64,000 bases of DNA, taken from assembly GCA_977020255.1 (NCBI GenBank), contig CDROCS010000279.1, forward strand, positions 62,001-126,000, given 5' to 3'. Both the position numbers and the translations under genes were made by a program. Under the pieces are notes generated by a model. The model made no database searches and was not told the DNA's origin. It was given only the letters and a program-made list of their open reading frames with translations. This document shows, in pieces, positions 1 through 64,000 of the stretch. The DNA comes from Obrimoposthia wandeli. Taxonomy: Eukaryota. How positions within the stretch are numbered: the first letter of the stretch is position 1; every line of letters begins with the position of its first letter.

Positions 1-146
1 TCCCCTCCTCCACCATGATGCCAATAAATATTTTTGAAACTAGATTTGAAAATAGATTCATTTTGCAACAATTTACAGACGAAATGTGTCTTTCCACTTC
101 CACTAGGGCCAACTATTTGAAATACAGCATTATTATTTAGCTCCAT
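1..146 (-). CDS. FtsK/HerA (A32-like) DNA-packaging ATPase, N-terminal part, truncated by window edge
   Basis: ATG at 146; reads MELNNNAVFQIVGPSGSGKTHFVCKLLQNE..., with Walker A GPSGSGKT. Near-identical to 63633-63778. Confidence 0.85.
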   Translation of the reverse strand, partial: MELNNNAVFQIVGPSGSGKTHFVCKLLQNESIFKSSFKNIYWHHGGGG

Positions 147-183
147 TGCATATACTCTTTCATTTTTAATATTGTTTATATTA

Positions 184-456
184 TCATAGAAGTTTCCTTA
201 TTGAAATGTACAATGTTAGAGCTATTGTAGAATAAATACAAAAATTAATTAATGAATATTTGGCTATAATTTTATTTATTTGTGTACGATTTCTAAATTC
301 TCGAATAACGTGTGATCTAACCAATATTTCAATGTTATCTCTTGTTATATCATTATTTTTTAATTCTGATAAAATTTCTTTACCCCTAATTTTTCCAGAA
401 AATATTTCATCGGCAAGCCGATCCACTTCATTGTCTCTATTTATAGTATTATTCAT
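184..456 (-). CDS. 90-aa Maverick ORF with a C-terminal hydrophobic segment (putative small membrane protein)
   Basis: Intact ORF between the TBP-like gene and the ATPase; C-terminus YSLINFCIYSTIALTLYISIRKLL. Homologue at 63321-63595. Confidence 0.7.
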   Translation of the reverse strand: MNNTINRDNEVDRLADEIFSGKIRGKEILSELKNNDITRDNIEILVRSHVIREFRNRTQINKIIAKYSLINFCIYSTIALTLYISIRKLL

Positions 457-554
457 TCAAAACAATAAGTTTAAACGGGTTTGTTTATAGAAAAGATAAC
501 AAGATGTAATAAGATATATTTTCTAAAATAAAATCAACAATGTCTAGAGTTTTT

Positions 555-988
555 TCAATATATTTTCAATCCCAATATCATAACTTTACCACTGGAAAAT
601 ATATTTATACATAGCGGTTTAAACTTCAAATAACTGAGAGCAGGAAAAATTTCTGGTTCAAACATGCATTCTTCTTTCATTTTCTCTGCAGTTTTAAAAA
701 GATTTGTCTGTTTCCCGAGATTAGCCGAAATCGTGATTGATTGTATTGCAATGATTTGAATTCCAAATGGAAAATTGAACCCAAGCATTGGTATTTTGCA
801 TCCCATAACACGACAATTTCCTAAAGAATTCAATATGAAAATAAAATAAAAAACTAACCTGTAGGAAAAATAACAACTGTGAAATTGTCAAACTTTTCTA
901 CATATTGTCTCGGTTTCCATTCATTGAATGGTAAGTACGAAACATCATCTTCTGTTCTACCTTTATAATTTATATTTACGAGTTTCAT
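555..988 (-). CDS. TATA-binding-protein-like gene, two exons (988-859, 820-555; 38-nt GT-AG intron 858-821), 131 aa
   Basis: Spliced product MKLVNINYKGRTEDDVSYLPFNEWKPRQYVEKFDNFTVVIFPT^GNCRVMGCK...IQSITISANLG...FEPEIFPALSYLKFKPLCINIFSSGKVMILGLKIY. It matches both TBP repeats (TALIFSSGKMVCTGAK; YEPELFPGLIY...LIFVSGKVVLTGAK). Relative to copy C a 4-nt length difference near the 3' end gives an early stop before the last helix. The intron is inferred. Confidence 0.75.
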
Positions 989-1084
989 TAGACTAAAATT
1001 GTATTCTGTAAAATCTTCTTTATATATGTCTGAACCTGCTTTTTTATTGCACGTTTCTTGTAATTATCTTGTAAACCTATTATA

Positions 1085-1190
1085 ATTGGATGATATATTT
1101 AGTCCAATCTAATCCAATGCTTTTGTTATATTAACCAATGAGATTCATGTTTTTTGTTAGAAATTAGTATAAAAGAATGCGCCATTGGAG
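1085..1190. promoter_or_regulatory. Candidate divergent Pol II promoter (CCAAT boxes plus TATA box) between the TBP-like gene and ORF158
   Basis: ATTGG 1085-1089; CCAAT 1104-1108, 1114-1118, 1135-1139; TATAAAAG 1168-1175, about 30 bp upstream of ATG 1206. The TATA and several CCAAT/ATTGG motifs are retained in copy C. Confidence 0.45.
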
Positions 1191-1205: not shown

Positions 1206-1682
1206 ATGCATTCATATCAAAGACAATTATCAACGATGGACGATAGCCAACGGGTATTAAGCGATGACAAAGAAATGTTTGAAGAATCCGATAAGGATAT
1301 GTATGAAGAAGTGAAACAATATTTCAAATACAAAGTCAGATTTTTGAAGAAGGCTCAGCTGATTGCTTTAGTAAATCCTGTGACAATTGAAAGAAGAAAG
1401 TTCAGCTACTATCTATCAGGTATTCAAAAACCTGATTTTCAATATCTTAAACAGAAAATAGAAAAGGCAGTTCCAAATTTTACTTTCAATAAGAACGAAT
1501 TTTATATCCGAGGAGCCGATGAAGCATTTCTAGATGACTATGGAAGATATGTTGATATTGATGCGTTTCCGAAAAGGAAGCATTGGACTGTAACAATTCG
1601 ACTTTATGGTTACAAGAAAGATGAAATGGGAACAAAGTTGCCTATGTGGAAAATTGAACGTGCTCATATTTCTATGTTTTAA
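1206..1682 (+). CDS. Maverick ORF158, unknown function (paralogue of the adjacent ORF134)
   Basis: Intact 158-aa ORF; homologues at 56545-56976, 61906-62545, about 11340-11650 and a scrap near 26475-26525. Confidence 0.75.
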   Translation: MHSYQRQLSTMDDSQRVLSDDKEMFEESDKDMYEEVKQYFKYKVRFLKKAQLIALVNPVTIERRKFSYYLSGIQKPDFQYLKQKIEKAVPNFTFNKNEFYIRGADEAFLDDYGRYVDIDAFPKRKHWTVTIRLYGYKKDEMGTKLPMWKIERAHISMF

Positions 1683-1815
1683 CTTTTGTGTGTAATAAAT
1701 TGTAATCGGTTTTACTATGTTTCTTTCATTTAATAATCAGTTTTATTTGTATCTTATTTGTATCTTTTGTGTATTTTTTATAAATATTGTTTTTAATCAG
1801 TTTCCTTATTTTAGA

Positions 1816-2220
1816 ATGGATAAGAAATGTGTAGCAAATTTTTATTATCCCGAAAGAATTTCAAAAGAAAAACTATGTAATATATTAAAGAGGCATCAAA
1901 TTATACGAGTTATGAATCCTGTGAAAATATCAAAAGTGGAGAAAAAATATCTCATCGAAATTTTAACAACAACTGATTTTGATCAACTGAAAAATATTTT
2001 GGGATTTTACATTCCTGATTATGTATATGAAGGAAATTGTTTCGAGCTTGATACTGATCCCAGTCTGGATTTTAAAGATGATCTAGGATATTTGATTGCT
2101 CCAATTCTAGATGAAGAAATATGGAATATCTCAATACGTCTGAATGGATATTTTGCTGATGACGAGAAAATGCAGCCTCTCTGGACTTTGAGTGAAGCCA
2201 ATATGTTGTTTTATGTTTAA
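1816..2220 (+). CDS. Maverick ORF134 (track start 1717 probably over-extended; likely start MDKKCVANF at 1816), unknown function
   Basis: Intact ORF; homologues at 56011-56408, 61353-61760 and a diverged one at about 10810-10990. It shares Q(L/I)I..VNPV.I, DF..LK, W...IRL.GY..D and P.W....A with ORF158. Confidence 0.7.
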   Translation: MDKKCVANFYYPERISKEKLCNILKRHQIIRVMNPVKISKVEKKYLIEILTTTDFDQLKNILGFYIPDYVYEGNCFELDTDPSLDFKDDLGYLIAPILDEEIWNISIRLNGYFADDEKMQPLWTLSEANMLFYV

Positions 2221-2337: not shown

Positions 2338-3075
2338 NNNNNNNNNNNNNNNNNNNNNNNNNNNNNNNNNNNNNNNNNNNNNNNNNNNNNNNNNNNNNNN
2401 NNNNNNNNNNNNNNNNNNNNNNNNNNNNNNNNNNNNNNNNNNNNNNNNNNNNNNNNNNNNNNNNNNNNNNNNNNNNNNNNNNNNNNNNNNNNNNNNNNNN
2501 NNNNNNNNNNNNNNNNNNNNNNNNNNNNNNNNNNNNNNNNNNNNNNNNNNNNNNNNNNNNNNNNNNNNNNNNNNNNNNNNNNNNNNNNNNNNNNNNNNNN
2601 NNNNNNNNNNNNNNNNNNNNNNNNNNNNNNNNNNNNNNNNNNNNNNNNNNNNNNNNNNNNNNNNNNNNNNNNNNNNNNNNNNNNNNNNNNNNNNNNNNNN
2701 NNNNNNNNNNNNNNNNNNNNNNNNNNNNNNNNNNNNNNNNNNNNNNNNNNNNNNNNNNNNNNNNNNNNNNNNNNNNNNNNNNNNNNNNNNNNNNNNNNNN
2801 NNNNNNNNNNNNNNNNNNNNNNNNNNNNNNNNNNNNNNNNNNNNNNNNNNNNNNNNNNNNNNNNNNNNNNNNNNNNNNNNNNNNNNNNNNNNNNNNNNNN
2901 NNNNNNNNNNNNNNNNNNNNNNNNNNNNNNNNNNNNNNNNNNNNNNNNNNNNNNNNNNNNNNNNNNNNNNNNNNNNNNNNNNNNNNNNNNNNNNNNNNNN
3001 NNNNNNNNNNNNNNNNNNNNNNNNNNNNNNNNNNNNNNNNNNNNNNNNNNNNNNNNNNNNNNNNNNNNNNNNNNN
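2338..3075. other. Assembly gap (738 N)
   Basis: Run of N; ORF-track entries spanning it are artefacts. Confidence 1.
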
Positions 3076-10546: not shown

Positions 10547-11700
10547 AGTAGTTGGATATGTACGGTCTAATCCACCCTCCTCCTCCCCATTCTAGGCGAT
10601 ATGTGAGGGAGGGTAGTCATGTGTCTTATAAATATGTACATGTGTGTCTGGAGTGAAAATTCGCGTTGTGAGTATGATTTTAAAATTAAAGATAGTCTAT
10701 TTTTCTTGAACAATTGTAAAAATTTATTAACAGAAAGATTAAATATAAAACACCATATTAGCTTCATTTAAAGTTCAACGACGGTGCATATATAATTGGC
10801 AGGAACATGATTCGTATCGAAATATTTAATGCATCTCCTTCTAAATAAGTATCAAATACATAACCAAAGTCATATTTTAAAGCAAGATAGGGAACCACTT
10901 GAATCTTAAAAGAATTTCTTTAAAAAAGATAATCAAGCATAAAAAGTTCTAAAATATCTTTGAACTAATCAATATCAAAATTTCTTAAAATCCCCATTAA
11001 ATATTAATTTCAACTTTTGATATTTTCACGGATTTTCGAGATATTAAAATTTTGTATATAACTCAGAAAAAAATTCATTCTAAAAAAATAAAGAAAATTG
11101 ATTAAATACATATTTTTATAACAATTATATTTAAACAAGACACAAATATTATGAAACAAAATATAAAGAGATAAAAAATTAAAATTGATTACAATTTATT
11201 ACTTGAATAAAGTCAATACATACATATATACAATTTGAAAAAACATTAAACAATTAAATATAAAGTAAAAGTAAAATATATAGAAAGGAAAAATAGTCAA
11301 AACGTAGAGTTATGATTTCAAATTATAATTTATGTAGCTTTATTCAAAATTTCATTCTTCTAGCAACCATGAAGTCAACGTGTTACAGTCCAATGCATCT
11401 TTTTTAAAAACGCTTCAATATCATTTTTCTTCTCTATTTATCTAAAATTCTGAATATTATCTTTGAATATAAAATTCGTTTTTATCAAATTAAAAATTTT
11501 GGAACGGTTTTTTCAACTCTTTTTAAGATACAGAAAATCTGGCTTTTGAATATAACAGCTAAACGTTCTTATATCAACTGTCACAAGATTTACCAAAGCA
11601 ATTAGTTGAGCTTTCTTCAAGAACATCATTTTGTATTTGAAATATAATCCGGTTCGAGTTGTCTCTCCTTTAAAAGTACCCATGGCGCCATTTAAGTTGG
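10547..11700 (+). mobile_element. Diverged Maverick copy D (TIR plus decayed ORF134 and ORF158 homologues); right boundary unclear, may reach ~12800
   Basis: Starts AGTAGTTGGATATGTACGGTCTAATCCACCC (cf. AGTAGGTGGATGTGTCCGGTCTAATCC) and has CATGTGTGTCTGGAGTGAAA. The minus strand gives DID*FKDILELFMLDY...KYDFGYVFDTYLEGDALNISIR (ORF134-like) and YFKYKMMFLKKAQLIALVNLVTV...IQKPDFLYLK (ORF158-like). Same order as copies B and C. Confidence 0.8.
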
Positions 11701-26170: not shown

Positions 26171-26474
26171 CTTTCTTCAACTGCTTATTGTGACCAATTT
26201 AGGTAGCTAAAAGAATTGGTAGTAACAATTTCAATCTTAAAAGAATTTCTTTCATATAATTCTAAAATTATATAATATTTTTTAATTAGTAAATATCAGT
26301 TCTTGTTAAAATTCCATTTAAATGTATGAAGTAAAAATAAACTGTTCCCAAGTTATTACTAGAAAATCAGAAAACTACTAATGCAAATCTGGTTAAAGTT
26401 AAACTTACAAAACAATGAAATGAAAGAAATAGTCGCTAAAAATCGCTAAACTTTCTTCTTTCAAGTAACACTGA

Positions 26475-26525
26475 ATTTACCAAAGCAGTCTTTTTCAAGA
26501 ATCTGACTTTGTATTTGAAATATTG
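26475..26525 (-). pseudogene. Short scrap of Maverick ORF158
   Basis: TTTACCAAAGCAGTC...TTCAAGAATCTGACTTTGTATTTGAAATATTG matches 56853-56910 and 62397-62452. Confidence 0.6.
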
Positions 26526-27142
26526 CTTGAAACTTTAACTGGAACATATTTTGAAAAATTGGACACTTAGGAATTTGATAATAACATTTATTCTTAGGAA
26601 AGAAATCAACAGTAAGTAGAAATGATCACATAAGAAAGAAATAAAAGAATATAATTGTTATAATAGACAATAACTTTCAAATTGGATGTAAGAAAATTTA
26701 TATTTTTCTTCAAATGACTTTCGTTGAAGCAAAATATCCGTTATGGTGCATGGATATTTGAGGAATTGATTGCAACAATAACTACAAATGTAAGGAAATG
26801 TCTCCTTTTGTCTGGGTCTCTTCCTTCCACCTGTCAGGAAATATCTTTGCATTCTAACAGTTATTCTAATACAATGAATTACTAATAATAGTATGACATT
26901 TGAAAATGTTACGCTCTGGAATCTGCATAAACCAAATATATATTACGTGAACTAAGGTTATTTTTTGTTAAGATTAAAATTTATAAAAAAGGAAAAATTA
27001 TAGATAAAATAATTAATTTAAAATTAGCAAAAATATAATTTTAAAAAAAAATTCATCCGCATAATGTACAAGGTTGTTGGATAATTGACATCAGTTTAAA
27101 AATATAAATACAAGATAAATACAAACTTATTAAAACAATAAA

Positions 27143-54550: not shown

Positions 54551-56010
54551 ATGACTTAGAGTCGCCGGATTGCAGAATAAAGCGTATTTAACTATAAAAT
54601 TCCGGACACACAGTATTCGTACTCAGTATGCTAGAATGTTTGAAATTCACACAACCATGAGCATGCCATTGATTCGCCCTTAAGAAGTCAGGGAACGCGC
54701 TGGCCATTCTAGAGACCATGTTCTGCCAAGTGCAACATTAGAGAAATACAGACGAGCCACGACTTGCAGGTAAATATTTTCTTTACGACGCTTGTTAAAC
54801 AAAAATACTTATTCAACACACGACAACATTTTCTGTGTTCATGTTTGTGAAGTTTATGTCAAACTGATCAATCTTGAATTGGATACCATACATTATCTGT
54901 AGGGTCTACTAGTGAAGACTATTGTAGTTTGTGGAGACAATAAATATTTCATACCGAGTATGTCGAATTTGAATCATCAAAATAATATGACAAAAATTAC
55001 AACAACAAAATGTAGTTGGAGTTTGAAAAAGTTACAAAAGTTAAGCCTTTGTCGAACAATAACTTTCATACAATATAATAAAAAGTTCATAAAATAAAGC
55101 AAAATATCTTACAGCCAAATTTTAAAATAAAATTATTTATATATATAATACTTAATCTTCTTAAATTTTATTATATTAAATATCTCCAATTTCTATCAGT
55201 GCTTAATTAATATTTAAGCAAATATGCAATTTTGTTATTAACTTTTAAAAAATATTTTAATAAATAAAATAGATATTTTTTTTAATGATGCTTAATAAAA
55301 TATCCAATCAATACATATATTGTAGGGTTTTTTTCTTTTAAATTTTTAATCCTCGTACGAAGGCCCCCAACGTGATATGGCCTTCTGTAGCGATATGGCT
55401 TACATATGGATGTGGCCTACCTATTCAAGTCTCTAAAGGTTTTTGTGTTGTGTTAAGAGTTGTGAACAAGATAATTTAAAGTTCCCTAAAACTATTGTTG
55501 TGTGGTGTGGGTCTGAATCTTATGTTAGCGTCTCCCTGATTAATTCTCGGCTTAATACGGTTATCCTAGTTGCTATCAAGTTACGTTGACCTATCTGAAT
55601 ACGTGGGTGGTTCCCTAACAAGTCTTATGCTAAGGTATAGGTGGATGTGTCCGGTCTAATCCACACCCCCTACCCCCACTGTCCTTTAAAACCGTGCATG
55701 TGTGTGGAGTGAAATTTTGTGTATCTGTGTAGGGAAAAATTGAAAAAGCATCGAATAGGAAGGAAGTTCGGGGTACCCCCTATATTTTTATTTAACTTTG
55801 AAATTTATCTCGAAAGTGGTTAGAGAAGACCACGAGAATCCATATTGGACCCGACGGCTTTTCGCAGACGAGATTTCAAATAATATATTACAACTATTTT
55901 TAAGAAAGATTACTAGATGTTAAATATTTAGGTCAGAGAGAAAAATAGATCTATATAATTTAGAAGAGTAAAAACAAAATACGAGTCAAAATTATTTTTC
56001 AAAACATTTA

Positions 56011-56408
56011 TTAAACATAAAACAACATATTGGCTTCACTCAAAGTCCAGAGAGGATGCATTTTCCCATCATCAGCAAAATATCCATTGAGACGTATTGA
56101 GATATTCCATAGTTCTTCATCTAGAATTGGAGCAATCAAATATCCTAGATCATCTTTAAAATCCAGACTGGGATCAGTTTCAAGCTGGAAACAATTTCCT
56201 TCATATACATAATCAGGAATGTAAAATCCCAAAATATTTTTCAGTTGATCAAAATCAGTTGTTGTTAAAATTTTGATGAGATATTTATTCTGCACTTTTG
56301 ATATTTTCACAGGATTCATAACTCGTATAATTTGATGCTTCTTTAATATATTACATAGTTTTCCTTTTGAAATTCTTTCTGGATAATAATAATTTGCTAC
56401 ACATCCAT
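56011..56408 (-). pseudogene. ORF134 copy B; 7-nt deletion after the start codon, downstream frame open from Met at 56319
   Basis: ATGGAT-GTGTAGC versus ATGGATAAGAAATGTGTAGC in copy A; the remainder is about 90% identical. Confidence 0.8.
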
Positions 56409-56544
56409 TCTAAAATAAGGAAACTGATTAAAAACAATGTTTATAAAACAATACATATAAGATACATATATTGAAAAAATAAAACTGATTATTAAATGAA
56501 AGAAACATAGTAAAACTAATTACAATTTATTACACGTAAAAAGT

Positions 56545-56976
56545 TTAAAACATAGAAATATGAGCACGTTCAATTTTCCACATAGGCAACTTTGTCCCCA
56601 TTTCATCTTTCTTGTAACCATAAAGTCGAATTGTTACAATCCATTGTTTTTTTTTCGGAAATGCATCAATATCAACATATCTTCCATAGTCATATAGAAA
56701 TGCTTCATCGGGTCCTCGGATATAAAATTTGTTCTTATTGAAAGTAAAATTCGGAACTGCCTTTTCTATTTTCTGTTTAAGATATTGAAAATCAGATTTT
56801 TGAATATTTGATAGATAGTAGCTGAACTTTCTTCTTTCAATTGTCACAGGATTTACTAAAGCAATCAGTTGAGCCTTCTTCAAGAATCTGACTTTGTATT
56901 TGAAATATTGTTTCACTTCTTCATACATATTCTTATCCGATTCTTCAAACATTTCTATATCTTCGTCACCGCTTAA
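56545..56976 (-). CDS. ORF158 copy B (5' end lost in the gap)
   Basis: Open frame MFEESDKNMYEEVKQYFKYKVRF...KIERAHISMF. Confidence 0.75.
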   Translation of the reverse strand, partial: LSGDEDIEMFEESDKNMYEEVKQYFKYKVRFLKKAQLIALVNPVTIERRKFSYYLSNIQKSDFQYLKQKIEKAVPNFTFNKNKFYIRGPDEAFLYDYGRYVDIDAFPKKKQWIVTIRLYGYKKDEMGTKLPMWKIERAHISMF

Positions 56977-61905: not shown

Positions 61906-62545
61906 TTAAAACATAGAAATATGAGCACGTTCAATTTTCCACTTAGGCAACTTTGTCCCCATTTCATCTTTCTTGTAACCATAAAGTCGAATTGTTACAA
62001 TCCATTGTTTCTTTTTTGGAAATGCATCAATATCAACATATCTTCCATAGTCATATAGAAATGCTTCATCGGGTCCTCGGATATAAAATTTGTTCTTATT
62101 GAAAGTAAAATTCGGAACTGCCTTTTCAACTTTCTGTTTAAGATATTGAAAATCTGGTTTTTGAATATTTGATAGATACAGTAATTATTCACCTATAAGG
62201 GGTCCCACCTATAAGGGTGTCCGGTCACCGAAAATTTCACGCTTCACCTATAATAGTACCTTTCCAAGCTTTTAAATAATGCATCTATAAGTGATTCGGT
62301 GTCGGTCTCTCTCAAAAACATGTTTTAATGAATACCCTTACAGGTGAATAATTACTGTAGTAGCTGAACTTTCTTCGTTCAATTGTCACAGGATTTACTA
62401 AAGCAATCAGTTCAGCCTTCTTCAAGAATCTGACTTTGTATTTGAAATATTGTTTCACTTCTTCATACATATCCTTATCCGATTCTTCAAACATTTCTAT
62501 ATCTTACTCATCGCTTAATACCCGTTGTCTTTGATATGAATGCAT
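61906..62545 (-). pseudogene. ORF158 copy C, disrupted by a MITE
   Basis: Collinear with 1206-1682 except for the insertion at 62179-62357. Confidence 0.85.
62179..62357. mobile_element. 179-bp Tc1/mariner-type MITE with TA target duplication
   Basis: TA|CAGTAATTATTCACCTATAAGGG ... CCCTTACAGGTGAATAATTACTG|TA; 23-bp TIR with 1 mismatch. The empty site GATAGATAGTAGCTG is in copy B. Confidence 0.95.
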
Positions 62546-62795: not shown

Positions 62796-63328
62796 ATGAA
62801 ACTCGTAAATATAAATTAAAAAGCTAGAACCGAAGATGATGTTTCGTACTTACCATTCAATGAATGGAAGCCGAGACAATATGTAGAAAAGTTTGACAAT
62901 TTCACAGTTGTTATTTTTCCTACAGGTTAGTTTTTTTATTTTCATATTGAATTCTTTTAGGAAATTGTCGTGTTATGGGATACAAAATACCAATACTTGG
63001 GTTCAATTTACCATTTAGAATTCGAATCACTGCAATACAATCAATCACGATTTCGGCTAATCTTGGGAAACATATAAATCTTTTAAAAACTGCAGAGAAA
63101 ATGAAAGAAGAATGCATGTTTGAACCAGAAATGTTTCCTGCTCTCAGTTATTTGAAGTTTAAACCGCTATGTGTAAATATACTTTCCAGTGGTAAAGTAA
63201 TGATATTGGGATTGAAAATGTTTGATTATCCAGACATTGTTGATTTGATTTTAGAAAATATATCTTATTACATCTTGTTATCTTTTCTATCAACAAACCC
63301 GTTTAAATTTATTGTTTCAAATGAATAA
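62796..63328 (+). pseudogene. TBP-like gene, copy C (exons 62796-62925, 62961-63328; 35-nt intron); nonsense codon 8
   Basis: Same exon-1 length (130 nt) as copy A with TAT changed to TAA at 62817-62819. Intron GTTAG...TTTTAG at 62926-62960. Exon 2 is open through the C-terminal helix region. Confidence 0.75.
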
Positions 63329-63595: not shown

Positions 63596-63632
63596 TAATA
63601 TAAACAATATTAAAAATGAAAGAGTATATGCA

Positions 63633-64000
63633 ATGGAGCTAAATAATAATGCTGTATTTCAAATAGTTGGCCCAAGTGGAAGTGGAAAGACACATTTCGT
63701 CTGTAAATTGTTGCAAAATGAATCTCTTTTCAAATCTAGTTTCAAAAATATTTATTGGCATCATGGTGGAGGAGGGGAAAGCGGGTTAACCAAAACAGAA
63801 GTTTGCAAGTTGAAGGGTATAAAATTTATTGAAGGATTTGATGCAAATTGGTGTAAAAGATTGAAAAAAGAAGATGTAATAATACTTGATGATTTGTATG
63901 AGGAGGCTAACAAGGAATCGGACTTTAATAATTTATTTACAAAGATTGCAAGACATCGTGAAGTTACAGTTATATTTATCACTCAAAATCTGTTTCACCA
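63633..64000 (+). CDS. FtsK/HerA (A32-like) DNA-packaging ATPase of Maverick/Polinton type, truncated by window edge
   Basis: MELNNNAVFQIVGPSGSGKTHFV...VIILDDLY...LFTKIARHREVTVIFITQNLFH: Walker A, Walker B, the RH motif and ITQ motif in the expected order. Not listed in the ORF track because it has no stop in the window. Confidence 0.9.
   Translation, partial: MELNNNAVFQIVGPSGSGKTHFVCKLLQNESLFKSSFKNIYWHHGGGGESGLTKTEVCKLKGIKFIEGFDANWCKRLKKEDVIILDDLYEEANKESDFNNLFTKIARHREVTVIFITQNLFH

Follow-up and report, generated by a model that had tools for sequence, protein, structure and literature searches.

A minimal, intron-split TBP-fold gene in a Maverick lineage, a probable late-gene promoter factor

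We identified a gene for a TBP-fold protein of about 150 residues (hereafter mini-TBP), split by a short intron, in a high-copy family of Maverick/polintovirus elements. It is probable (roughly 0.62) that this protein is the elements' own late-gene promoter factor and binds the word YATAAACR. The intron-split gene is a real gene of a wide Maverick lineage, its splicing being deduced from sequence comparisons. Its likely role as promoter factor for the ATPase, integrase and capsid genes is suggested by the arrangement of the sequences and by analogy. The timing of virion gene expression in Mavericks, and their possible dependence on a helper virus, are open problems in the field. A dedicated TBP together with a fixed late-promoter word would point to an autonomous cycle in the nucleus that uses host Pol II, and makes the timing of Maverick genes testable with a single small protein and a site of eight bases.

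The window, the whole 64,000-nucleotide stretch of the Obrimoposthia wandeli genome that was analysed, contains the gene twice. Copy A, on the minus strand, has its ATG at 988 and an open exon 1 of 130 nt (859-988; 43 codons and 1 nt), which encodes the shortened repeat 1 of TBP as far as the junction Gly. It is followed by a 38-nt GT...AG segment (821-858), a putative intron in phase 1 in the Gly of F-x-x-G, and by an exon 2 of 87 codons (555-820) with the end of repeat 1 and a repeat 2 that includes the FEPEIF stirrup. Copy B, on the plus strand, consists of a 130-nt exon 1 (62796-62925), a 35-nt GT...AG segment (62926-62960) and an exon 2 of 121 codons (62961-63328). In both copies the unspliced frame meets a stop directly after the junction Gly, and exon 2 matches the Pfam TBP family (PF00352, E = 7.8e-11 and 3.1e-10). 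The exon 1 length, the two intron lengths and the stop in the unspliced frame had been claimed in the first-pass annotation and were all confirmed. Both window copies are broken: codon 8 of exon 1 is an in-frame stop in copy B, and the frame of copy A ends prematurely at 557-555, 87 codons into exon 2, and misses the last helix. Hence, neither encodes the whole protein. Exon 2 has 105-150 codons in 25 of the 26 A-type copies that were parsed (30 loci given, four not parsed).

The quality of this gene model was assessed with a profile built from 40 intron-less relatives, which had been found with exon 2 alone and included no sequence of the window. Among 1995 six-frame pieces of the window, the profile matched exon 1 of copy A over positions 4-49 (E = 1.7e-10), in agreement with the earlier claim that exon 1 restores repeat 1. 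Its match to exon 2 of copy B begins at position 49, so that the two matches, which are in different frames, meet at this position. A word-index search with exon 2 of copy B returned no relatives, whereas a full HMMER scan with exon 2 of a natural copy detected 779 representatives at E ≤ 0.001. The best-scoring ones include many proteins of 144-177 aa that are matched from around residue 45 and start with M(K)LVNINYK, like exon 1. The mini-TBP family is widespread and mostly intron-less. First-look searches of the host genome gave 1402 and 2120 candidates for the family, of which 40 were scored each time, and these figures are not copy numbers.

The GT-AG ends were found in 56 of the 57 parsed copies of the A/B families (60 fetched), with segments of 34-39 nt, and both exons were open in 26 of the 28 copies of A type and 23 of the 29 of B type. 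Two other families of the host genome have an intron at the same Gly: family D in seven of seven fetched copies (36-39 nt), and family E in 13 of 15 parsed copies (12 of 38 nt and one of 15 nt). Other mini-TBP families of this genome are intron-less. Among 80 metagenome loci, some truncated by contig ends, only L044 has an intron at this Gly (GT-AG, 40 nt). The intron sequences of these four groups (A/B, D, E and L044) align no better than shuffles, 20 to 206 of 300 shuffles doing at least as well, and the exon 1 ends differ with pS of 0.66-0.93 against pN of 0.27-0.42. A disabling insertion would not be expected to recur in this way, with different introns at one Gly and an exon 1 conserved at the protein level. 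The GT-AG ends, the frame colinear with intron-less relatives and the site common to several families are features of spliceosomal introns. The 821-858 joint was not among the joints listed in four runs of unspecified kind (contigs, one sample), a result that is uninformative either way.

An origin of the intron in the host TBP was rejected, because both host TBP exons run unbroken through the site. In a tree of 110 exon-2-equivalent segments (108 columns, quick search only), the intron-bearing rows fell into one weak group (support 81) of 11 rows, mixed with six intron-less rows. The tree may thus be read as one gain followed by losses, or as several gains. A family-E copy (L179/L196, G000:C4694) has an intron shrunk to 15 nt, in frame, and the inserts of L178 and L182 also read through without a stop. 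A second short, T-rich GT-AG segment follows the ATG of the next gene in L044 (820-870), and suggests that accessory genes of this lineage may have more introns. The Atlas holds clusters of TBP-domain proteins of 94-108 aa, with a few oomycete and nematode records, which may be split or spliced mini-TBPs of other hosts. The range of mini-TBP is likely undercounted, since simple ORF annotation misses a gene split in this way.

The dN/dS check proposed in the first-pass annotation gave different answers in different families. It was favourable in the intron-less sister families, with dN/dS around 0.16 in three pairs and around 0.12-0.13 in the part equivalent to exon 1. In the A/B families, variants present in a single copy are neutral (pN/pS of 1.0-1.15). 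The A/B variants common to at least four copies gave pN/pS of 0.26 in exon 1 and 2.7 in exon 2, from small counts. The differences between subfamilies A and B were synonymous in three of three cases in exon 1 and in one of four in exon 2. Given so few differences, and these values for exon 2, recent purifying selection on exon 2 of A/B is not supported.

The fold of the protein was studied in the intron-less relative P0002, which stands for the family and not for the spliced product of the window. Its predicted structure (pLDDT 96.5) matched cellular TBP with Foldseek (E = 1.8e-9, both repeats covered) and was superimposed on residues 66-240 of yeast TBP with Z = 13.6 (rmsd 2.5, 149 residues aligned), the next unrelated row having Z = 6.0. 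Profile-profile comparison with the TBP family gave 99.4% over 150 columns. According to the model, the family has the two-lobed TBP fold, as the earlier fold check anticipated, and the helices of repeat 1 are nearly gone: the strands are kept, and three-residue turns replace H1 and H2. The shortening of these helices had been noticed in the first-pass annotation, and amounts to 11 residues between N69 and F116 (36 vs 47 in host TBP) and 13 between F116 and N159 (30 vs 43). The names N69, F99, F116, N159, F190, P191 and F207 follow the numbering of yeast TBP.

The conservation of key residues was tallied in 104 parsed relatives out of 108, a set chosen by similarity, and the search pattern itself partly imposes F190 and the stirrup. 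We relied on this tally because the motif-anchored tally over the 40 rows of alignment A1 misplaced some rows. The places of N69, F116, F190, P191 and F207 and the stirrup Glu are kept in 100-104 of these relatives, and three of the four intercalating Phe in all 104. The glutamates of FEPEIF, which had been reported as kept, held up well: E/D and E were found in 104/104 (partly pattern-forced), and E97 and E99 are invariant in the 40 aligned relatives. The claims on the intercalating residues fared less well. The 17-residue spacing of W24 and F41 is present in the window gene, but the F99 place is aromatic in only 24 of the 104 relatives (2/40 in A1), which weakens the view of four intact intercalating residues. 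Judging from these sequences, the Trp of the window's family (W24) is a feature of a sub-lineage and not of the whole family. Both repeat-2 Phe had been described as present, but the second is a Leu in copy B, and the spacing is 16, not 17. The repeat-2 Asn of cellular TBP is a Ser in 39 of 40 aligned relatives. A mostly non-aromatic F99 place could result in weaker DNA bending.

The element carrying mini-TBP is, by its gene content, a Maverick/polintovirus, as stated in the first-pass annotation and supported by matches to PF03175, PF00665, PF04665 and PF00770 in the element or its relatives. The gene order is mini-TBP, A32-type ATPase, rve integrase with chromodomain, capsid-sized ORF, protease-like ORF, and family B polymerase. 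The A32-type packaging ATPase was matched with PF04665 (E = 6.4e-7). In element A its start lies at 1-146 (minus strand), the rest of the core being in the adjacent L031 (G000:C279:52001-62000). In element B it lies at 63633-64000 (plus strand) and continues in L033. The integrase was matched in both L031 and L033 (PF00665, E = 5.5e-12 and 7.5e-12), and the protein-primed family B DNA polymerase in L031 (PF03175, E = 1.9e-7), where its frame is broken into pieces. The adenovirus-type protease was matched in the relatives L055 and L071 (PF00770, E = 1e-5 and 1e-7), and with E = 0.034 in L031 itself. An ORF of 405 aa, capsid-sized and in the expected place, had no match in PDB or PHROGs, and a weak Capsid_N match (E = 0.007) was found in the relative L107. 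The labels capsid, minor capsid and pX-like were assigned from ORF size and order only. We saw no RNA polymerase gene in these elements, and no clear terminal repeat between the flanks and the window, where a run of N (2338-3075) may cover one end.

Between mini-TBP and the ATPase lies an ORF of 90 aa (184-456, minus strand), to which no family was assigned. On the other side lies a divergent ORF of 158 aa (1206-1682, plus strand), relatives of which occur in 17 of 81 related loci. It forms, with 1717-2220 (plus strand), a tandem that looks paralogous by eye. In the Atlas, the 158-aa ORF weakly resembles proteins of giant viruses, among them those of Pox_I3 and DUF2738 clusters (0.85), and the tandem ORFs possibly encode ssDNA-binding proteins. 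The divergent ORF of copy B is interrupted by an insertion of about 180 nt (62179-62357). Further fragments of the same Maverick, 68-94% identical, are found in the window at 10738-11645, 26445-26528 and 55947-56965. The polymerase shows a weak endonuclease VII-like match (L031:1759-3117 and L042:9125-12391, E from 0.003 to 8e-5).

Most core genes of L031 and L033 are preceded by TATAAACA or CATAAACA. In the window, TATAAACA, a YATAAACR form, precedes the 90-aa ORF (482-489, minus strand), the ATPase of element A (173-180, minus strand) and the ATPase of element B (63599-63606, plus strand). In 18 of 30 A-type loci, the word of the 482-489 type overlaps the end of the full-length mini-TBP frame, namely its last codon and its stop. 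Among the relatives, ATAAAC was found in the sense orientation at most 100 nt before the ATG of 26/27 ATPase, 10/10 capsid and 12/17 integrase genes, i.e., in 48 of 54 upstream regions, compared with none of 54 in antisense and one or two expected per gene set from shuffles. The preceding base is Y in 45/47 cases, the following one R in 47/47, and the word mostly lies 31-50 nt before the ATPase starts. Such strand bias, preceding Y and position are the behaviour of a core-promoter box.

The mini-TBP gene itself has a different upstream region. The word is present in 5 of 68 relatives, not enriched over the 4.3 expected, and a canonical TATA in 24 of 68, against 8.9 expected. In copy A, the canonical TATA-type box TATATAAA (1019-1026, minus strand) lies 31-38 nt before the start and is likely to be read by host TBP. 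The divergent promoter between this gene and the ORF at 1206 has five CCAAT/ATTGG boxes (1085-1188), although across relatives such boxes are not clearly enriched (15/68 vs 10.5 expected). It also holds TATAAAAG (1168-1175, plus strand), which had been put forward as a probe for binding by mini-TBP. We disfavour it as the target, because TATAAAAG is the canonical TATA box in the CCAAT-rich promoter of the divergent gene, and YATAAACR is the likelier candidate target.

The association between the gene and the word was compared with control contigs. We found 14 contigs by their integrase or ATPase, 11 of them with an ATPase; the integrase scan supplied the controls, and scans of viral contigs with capsid and ATPase queries found no contigs. 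Where no mini-TBP was visible, the word preceded the ATPase in one of ten Maverick/PLV contigs (L223, with no mini-TBP seen in 12.3 kb), and a canonical TATA did so in seven, by eye. L222, a contig retrieved only through its ATPase, carries mini-TBP as well as the word. The controls are fragments of 4-16 kb, mostly from one distant Maverick group, and the positive loci are mutually related, so the link is only suggestive, and gene and word may simply share ancestry. The earlier proposal that mini-TBP drives the element's own genes gains some support from the word before core genes and its near absence in controls. L221 and L222 are Maverick fragments within two bacterial metagenome-assembled genomes, one with mini-TBP, and this placement is likely due to binning contamination.

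These observations can be combined in a tentative mechanism. Host TBP and the spliceosome would express mini-TBP early, from its canonical TATA promoter. The intact repeat 2 would then grip the 5' end of the word, and its retained EPE(I/L)F stirrup would recruit host TFIIB. The contact of TBP with TFIIB depends on DNA. The word differs from the TATA box at base 7, beneath the lobe that is rebuilt in mini-TBP. The Phe residues of cellular TBP insert in pairs, those of the C-terminal pair at bases 1-2 and those of the N-terminal one at bases 7-8 (PMC3142196, PMC1935006). The rebuilt repeat 1, which covers bases 7-8 in cellular TBP, might accept C at position 7. In the TBP of Giardia, the loss of Phe can alter DNA binding (PMC12209930). 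Since H2 of TBP crosslinks to or contacts TFIIA and NC2 (PMC2577341), the loss of the repeat-1 helices would remove this surface and free mini-TBP from those host controls. It is about as likely as not that, more broadly, the Maverick lineage runs a one-protein early-late transcription programme, with a private YATAAACR box, TFIIB used without control by TFIIA or NC2, and intron gating in some families.

The host genome (1.35 Gb, AT-rich) encodes its own set of TBPs. Two canonical TBP genes, interrupted by short introns (L211 and L212, G000:C238:871771-873820), lie on opposite strands about 1.2 kb apart. Two near-identical divergent paralogues on other contigs (L213 and L214) are read from their sequences as TRF2-like, and TLF occurs in all metazoans (PMC3142196). 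The translations of two host TFIIB-family loci look, by eye, like split Brf-type genes.

Three other explanations of the data were considered. Mini-TBP could be a real spliced protein and a general stand-in when host TBP is scarce, with YATAAACR read by a host factor, which would be a Forkhead protein or host TBP bound to a variant box. ATAAACA matches the Forkhead motif RYAAAYA, there is a solved structure of TBP bound to a variant box with C(-25) (1qn3, as described in its entry), and L223 has the word with no mini-TBP in view. This explanation is unlikely, given the exclusively sense orientation of the word, its preceding Y and its position before the ATPase starts; moreover, the alternative Forkhead form GTAAAC is rare (3/54 sense). 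Mini-TBP might instead be a decoy that sequesters host TFIIB or blocks host TATA promoters, thereby dampening host transcription or defence. Such a function would suit invariant stirrup glutamates in a protein that has mostly lost the first repeat-1 Phe, and cellular TLF/TRF2 is described as able to inhibit TATA promoters by sequestering TFIIA (PMC3142196). It would leave the co-occurring word unexplained, however, and five residue places on the DNA face are conserved (F190 being pattern-forced); we regard it as still less plausible than a host reader. The competition with host TBP suggested in the first-pass annotation gained no support from these data.

The least credible explanation, to which we give very little weight, is that the gene is dead in the window's family and that the GT-AG segment is a disabling insertion. 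The damage to both window copies and the neutral single-copy variants would fit, as would the lack of introns in the intact vertebrate Mavericks described in PMC8097293. It is at odds with the unrelated segments of 35-40 nt at one phase 1 site in four families, next to a conserved exon 1, and with the many copies in which both exons are open; the introns of host TBP genes are similarly short. The reading of mini-TBP as a promoter factor of the element is thus the one that we prefer.

The elements share with other Maverick/Polintons (PMC8097293) the pPolB, the rve integrase with chromodomain, the A32 ATPase, the adenain-type protease and a capsid-sized ORF. In the available text of that study, the conserved set of vertebrate Mavericks has no TBP and is described as intron-less, whereas mini-TBP is an accessory gene conserved over a wide Maverick lineage, with a spliceosomal-type intron in some families. 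The suggestion that TBP had not been described in Mavericks is weakened. For midsize elements with adintovirus-like PolB (MELD viruses), Starrett et al. 2021 (PMC8502044; preprint 10.1101/697771) give the label 'TBP' in the legend to Fig. 5, as an entry in the section on non-animal datasets; the labelled element may or may not belong to the present family. The available text of that article has no TBP analysis, intron or promoter word, and one supplementary file has no TBP term. Neither PMC12220804 nor PMC8532177 contains the term, and the literature searched, with Repbase and most subscription papers outside its scope, gave no analysis of a Maverick mini-TBP gene. Hence, the conserved intron and the control contigs lacking mini-TBP are new relative to these sources, and the label itself dates from the 2021 legend.

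Giant DNA viruses also encode proteins with the TBP fold (BFVD: Heterosigma akashiwo virus, Mimiviridae, Marseillevirus; Foldseek E = 1.7e-8 and weaker), but these are longer and 9-20% identical to mini-TBP. Many giant DNA viruses bring their own RNA polymerase. Cellular and archaeal TBPs (PF00352; PDB 7o4i_O, 7egb_P, 2z8u, 1mp9) have the same two-lobed saddle (Z = 13.6, 148-149 residues aligned), and share with mini-TBP the EPE(I/L)FP stirrup, three of the four Phe and the strand-1 Asn. At about 23% identity, mini-TBP differs by being some 24 residues shorter in repeat 1, by the mostly non-aromatic F99 place, by the change of the repeat-2 Asn to Ser, and by the three-residue turns in place of H1 and H2. 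It is also a natural deletion experiment, in which the TFIIB stirrup is kept and the repeat-1 helices are dropped, and it would relax one Phe pair over the very base where its word departs from TATA.

The closest functional parallel is ORF24 of KSHV, a TBP mimic of beta/gamma-herpesviruses (PMC12529657). Both are virus-encoded TBP folds associated with a variant TATA word, and ORF24 acts on late promoters with TATTWAA. According to the available text of that article, ORF24 is a multi-domain protein of a six-member complex, binds Pol II directly, and has the four Phe without the TFIIB glutamates. Mini-TBP is a bare core of 144-165 aa with these glutamates, and its candidate word is YATAAACR. 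The function of ORF24 has been tested and that of mini-TBP is deduced, so the likeness is one of analogy and not of membership. If the proposed function is correct, a single protein would do in these Mavericks what takes a late complex of six proteins in herpesviruses.
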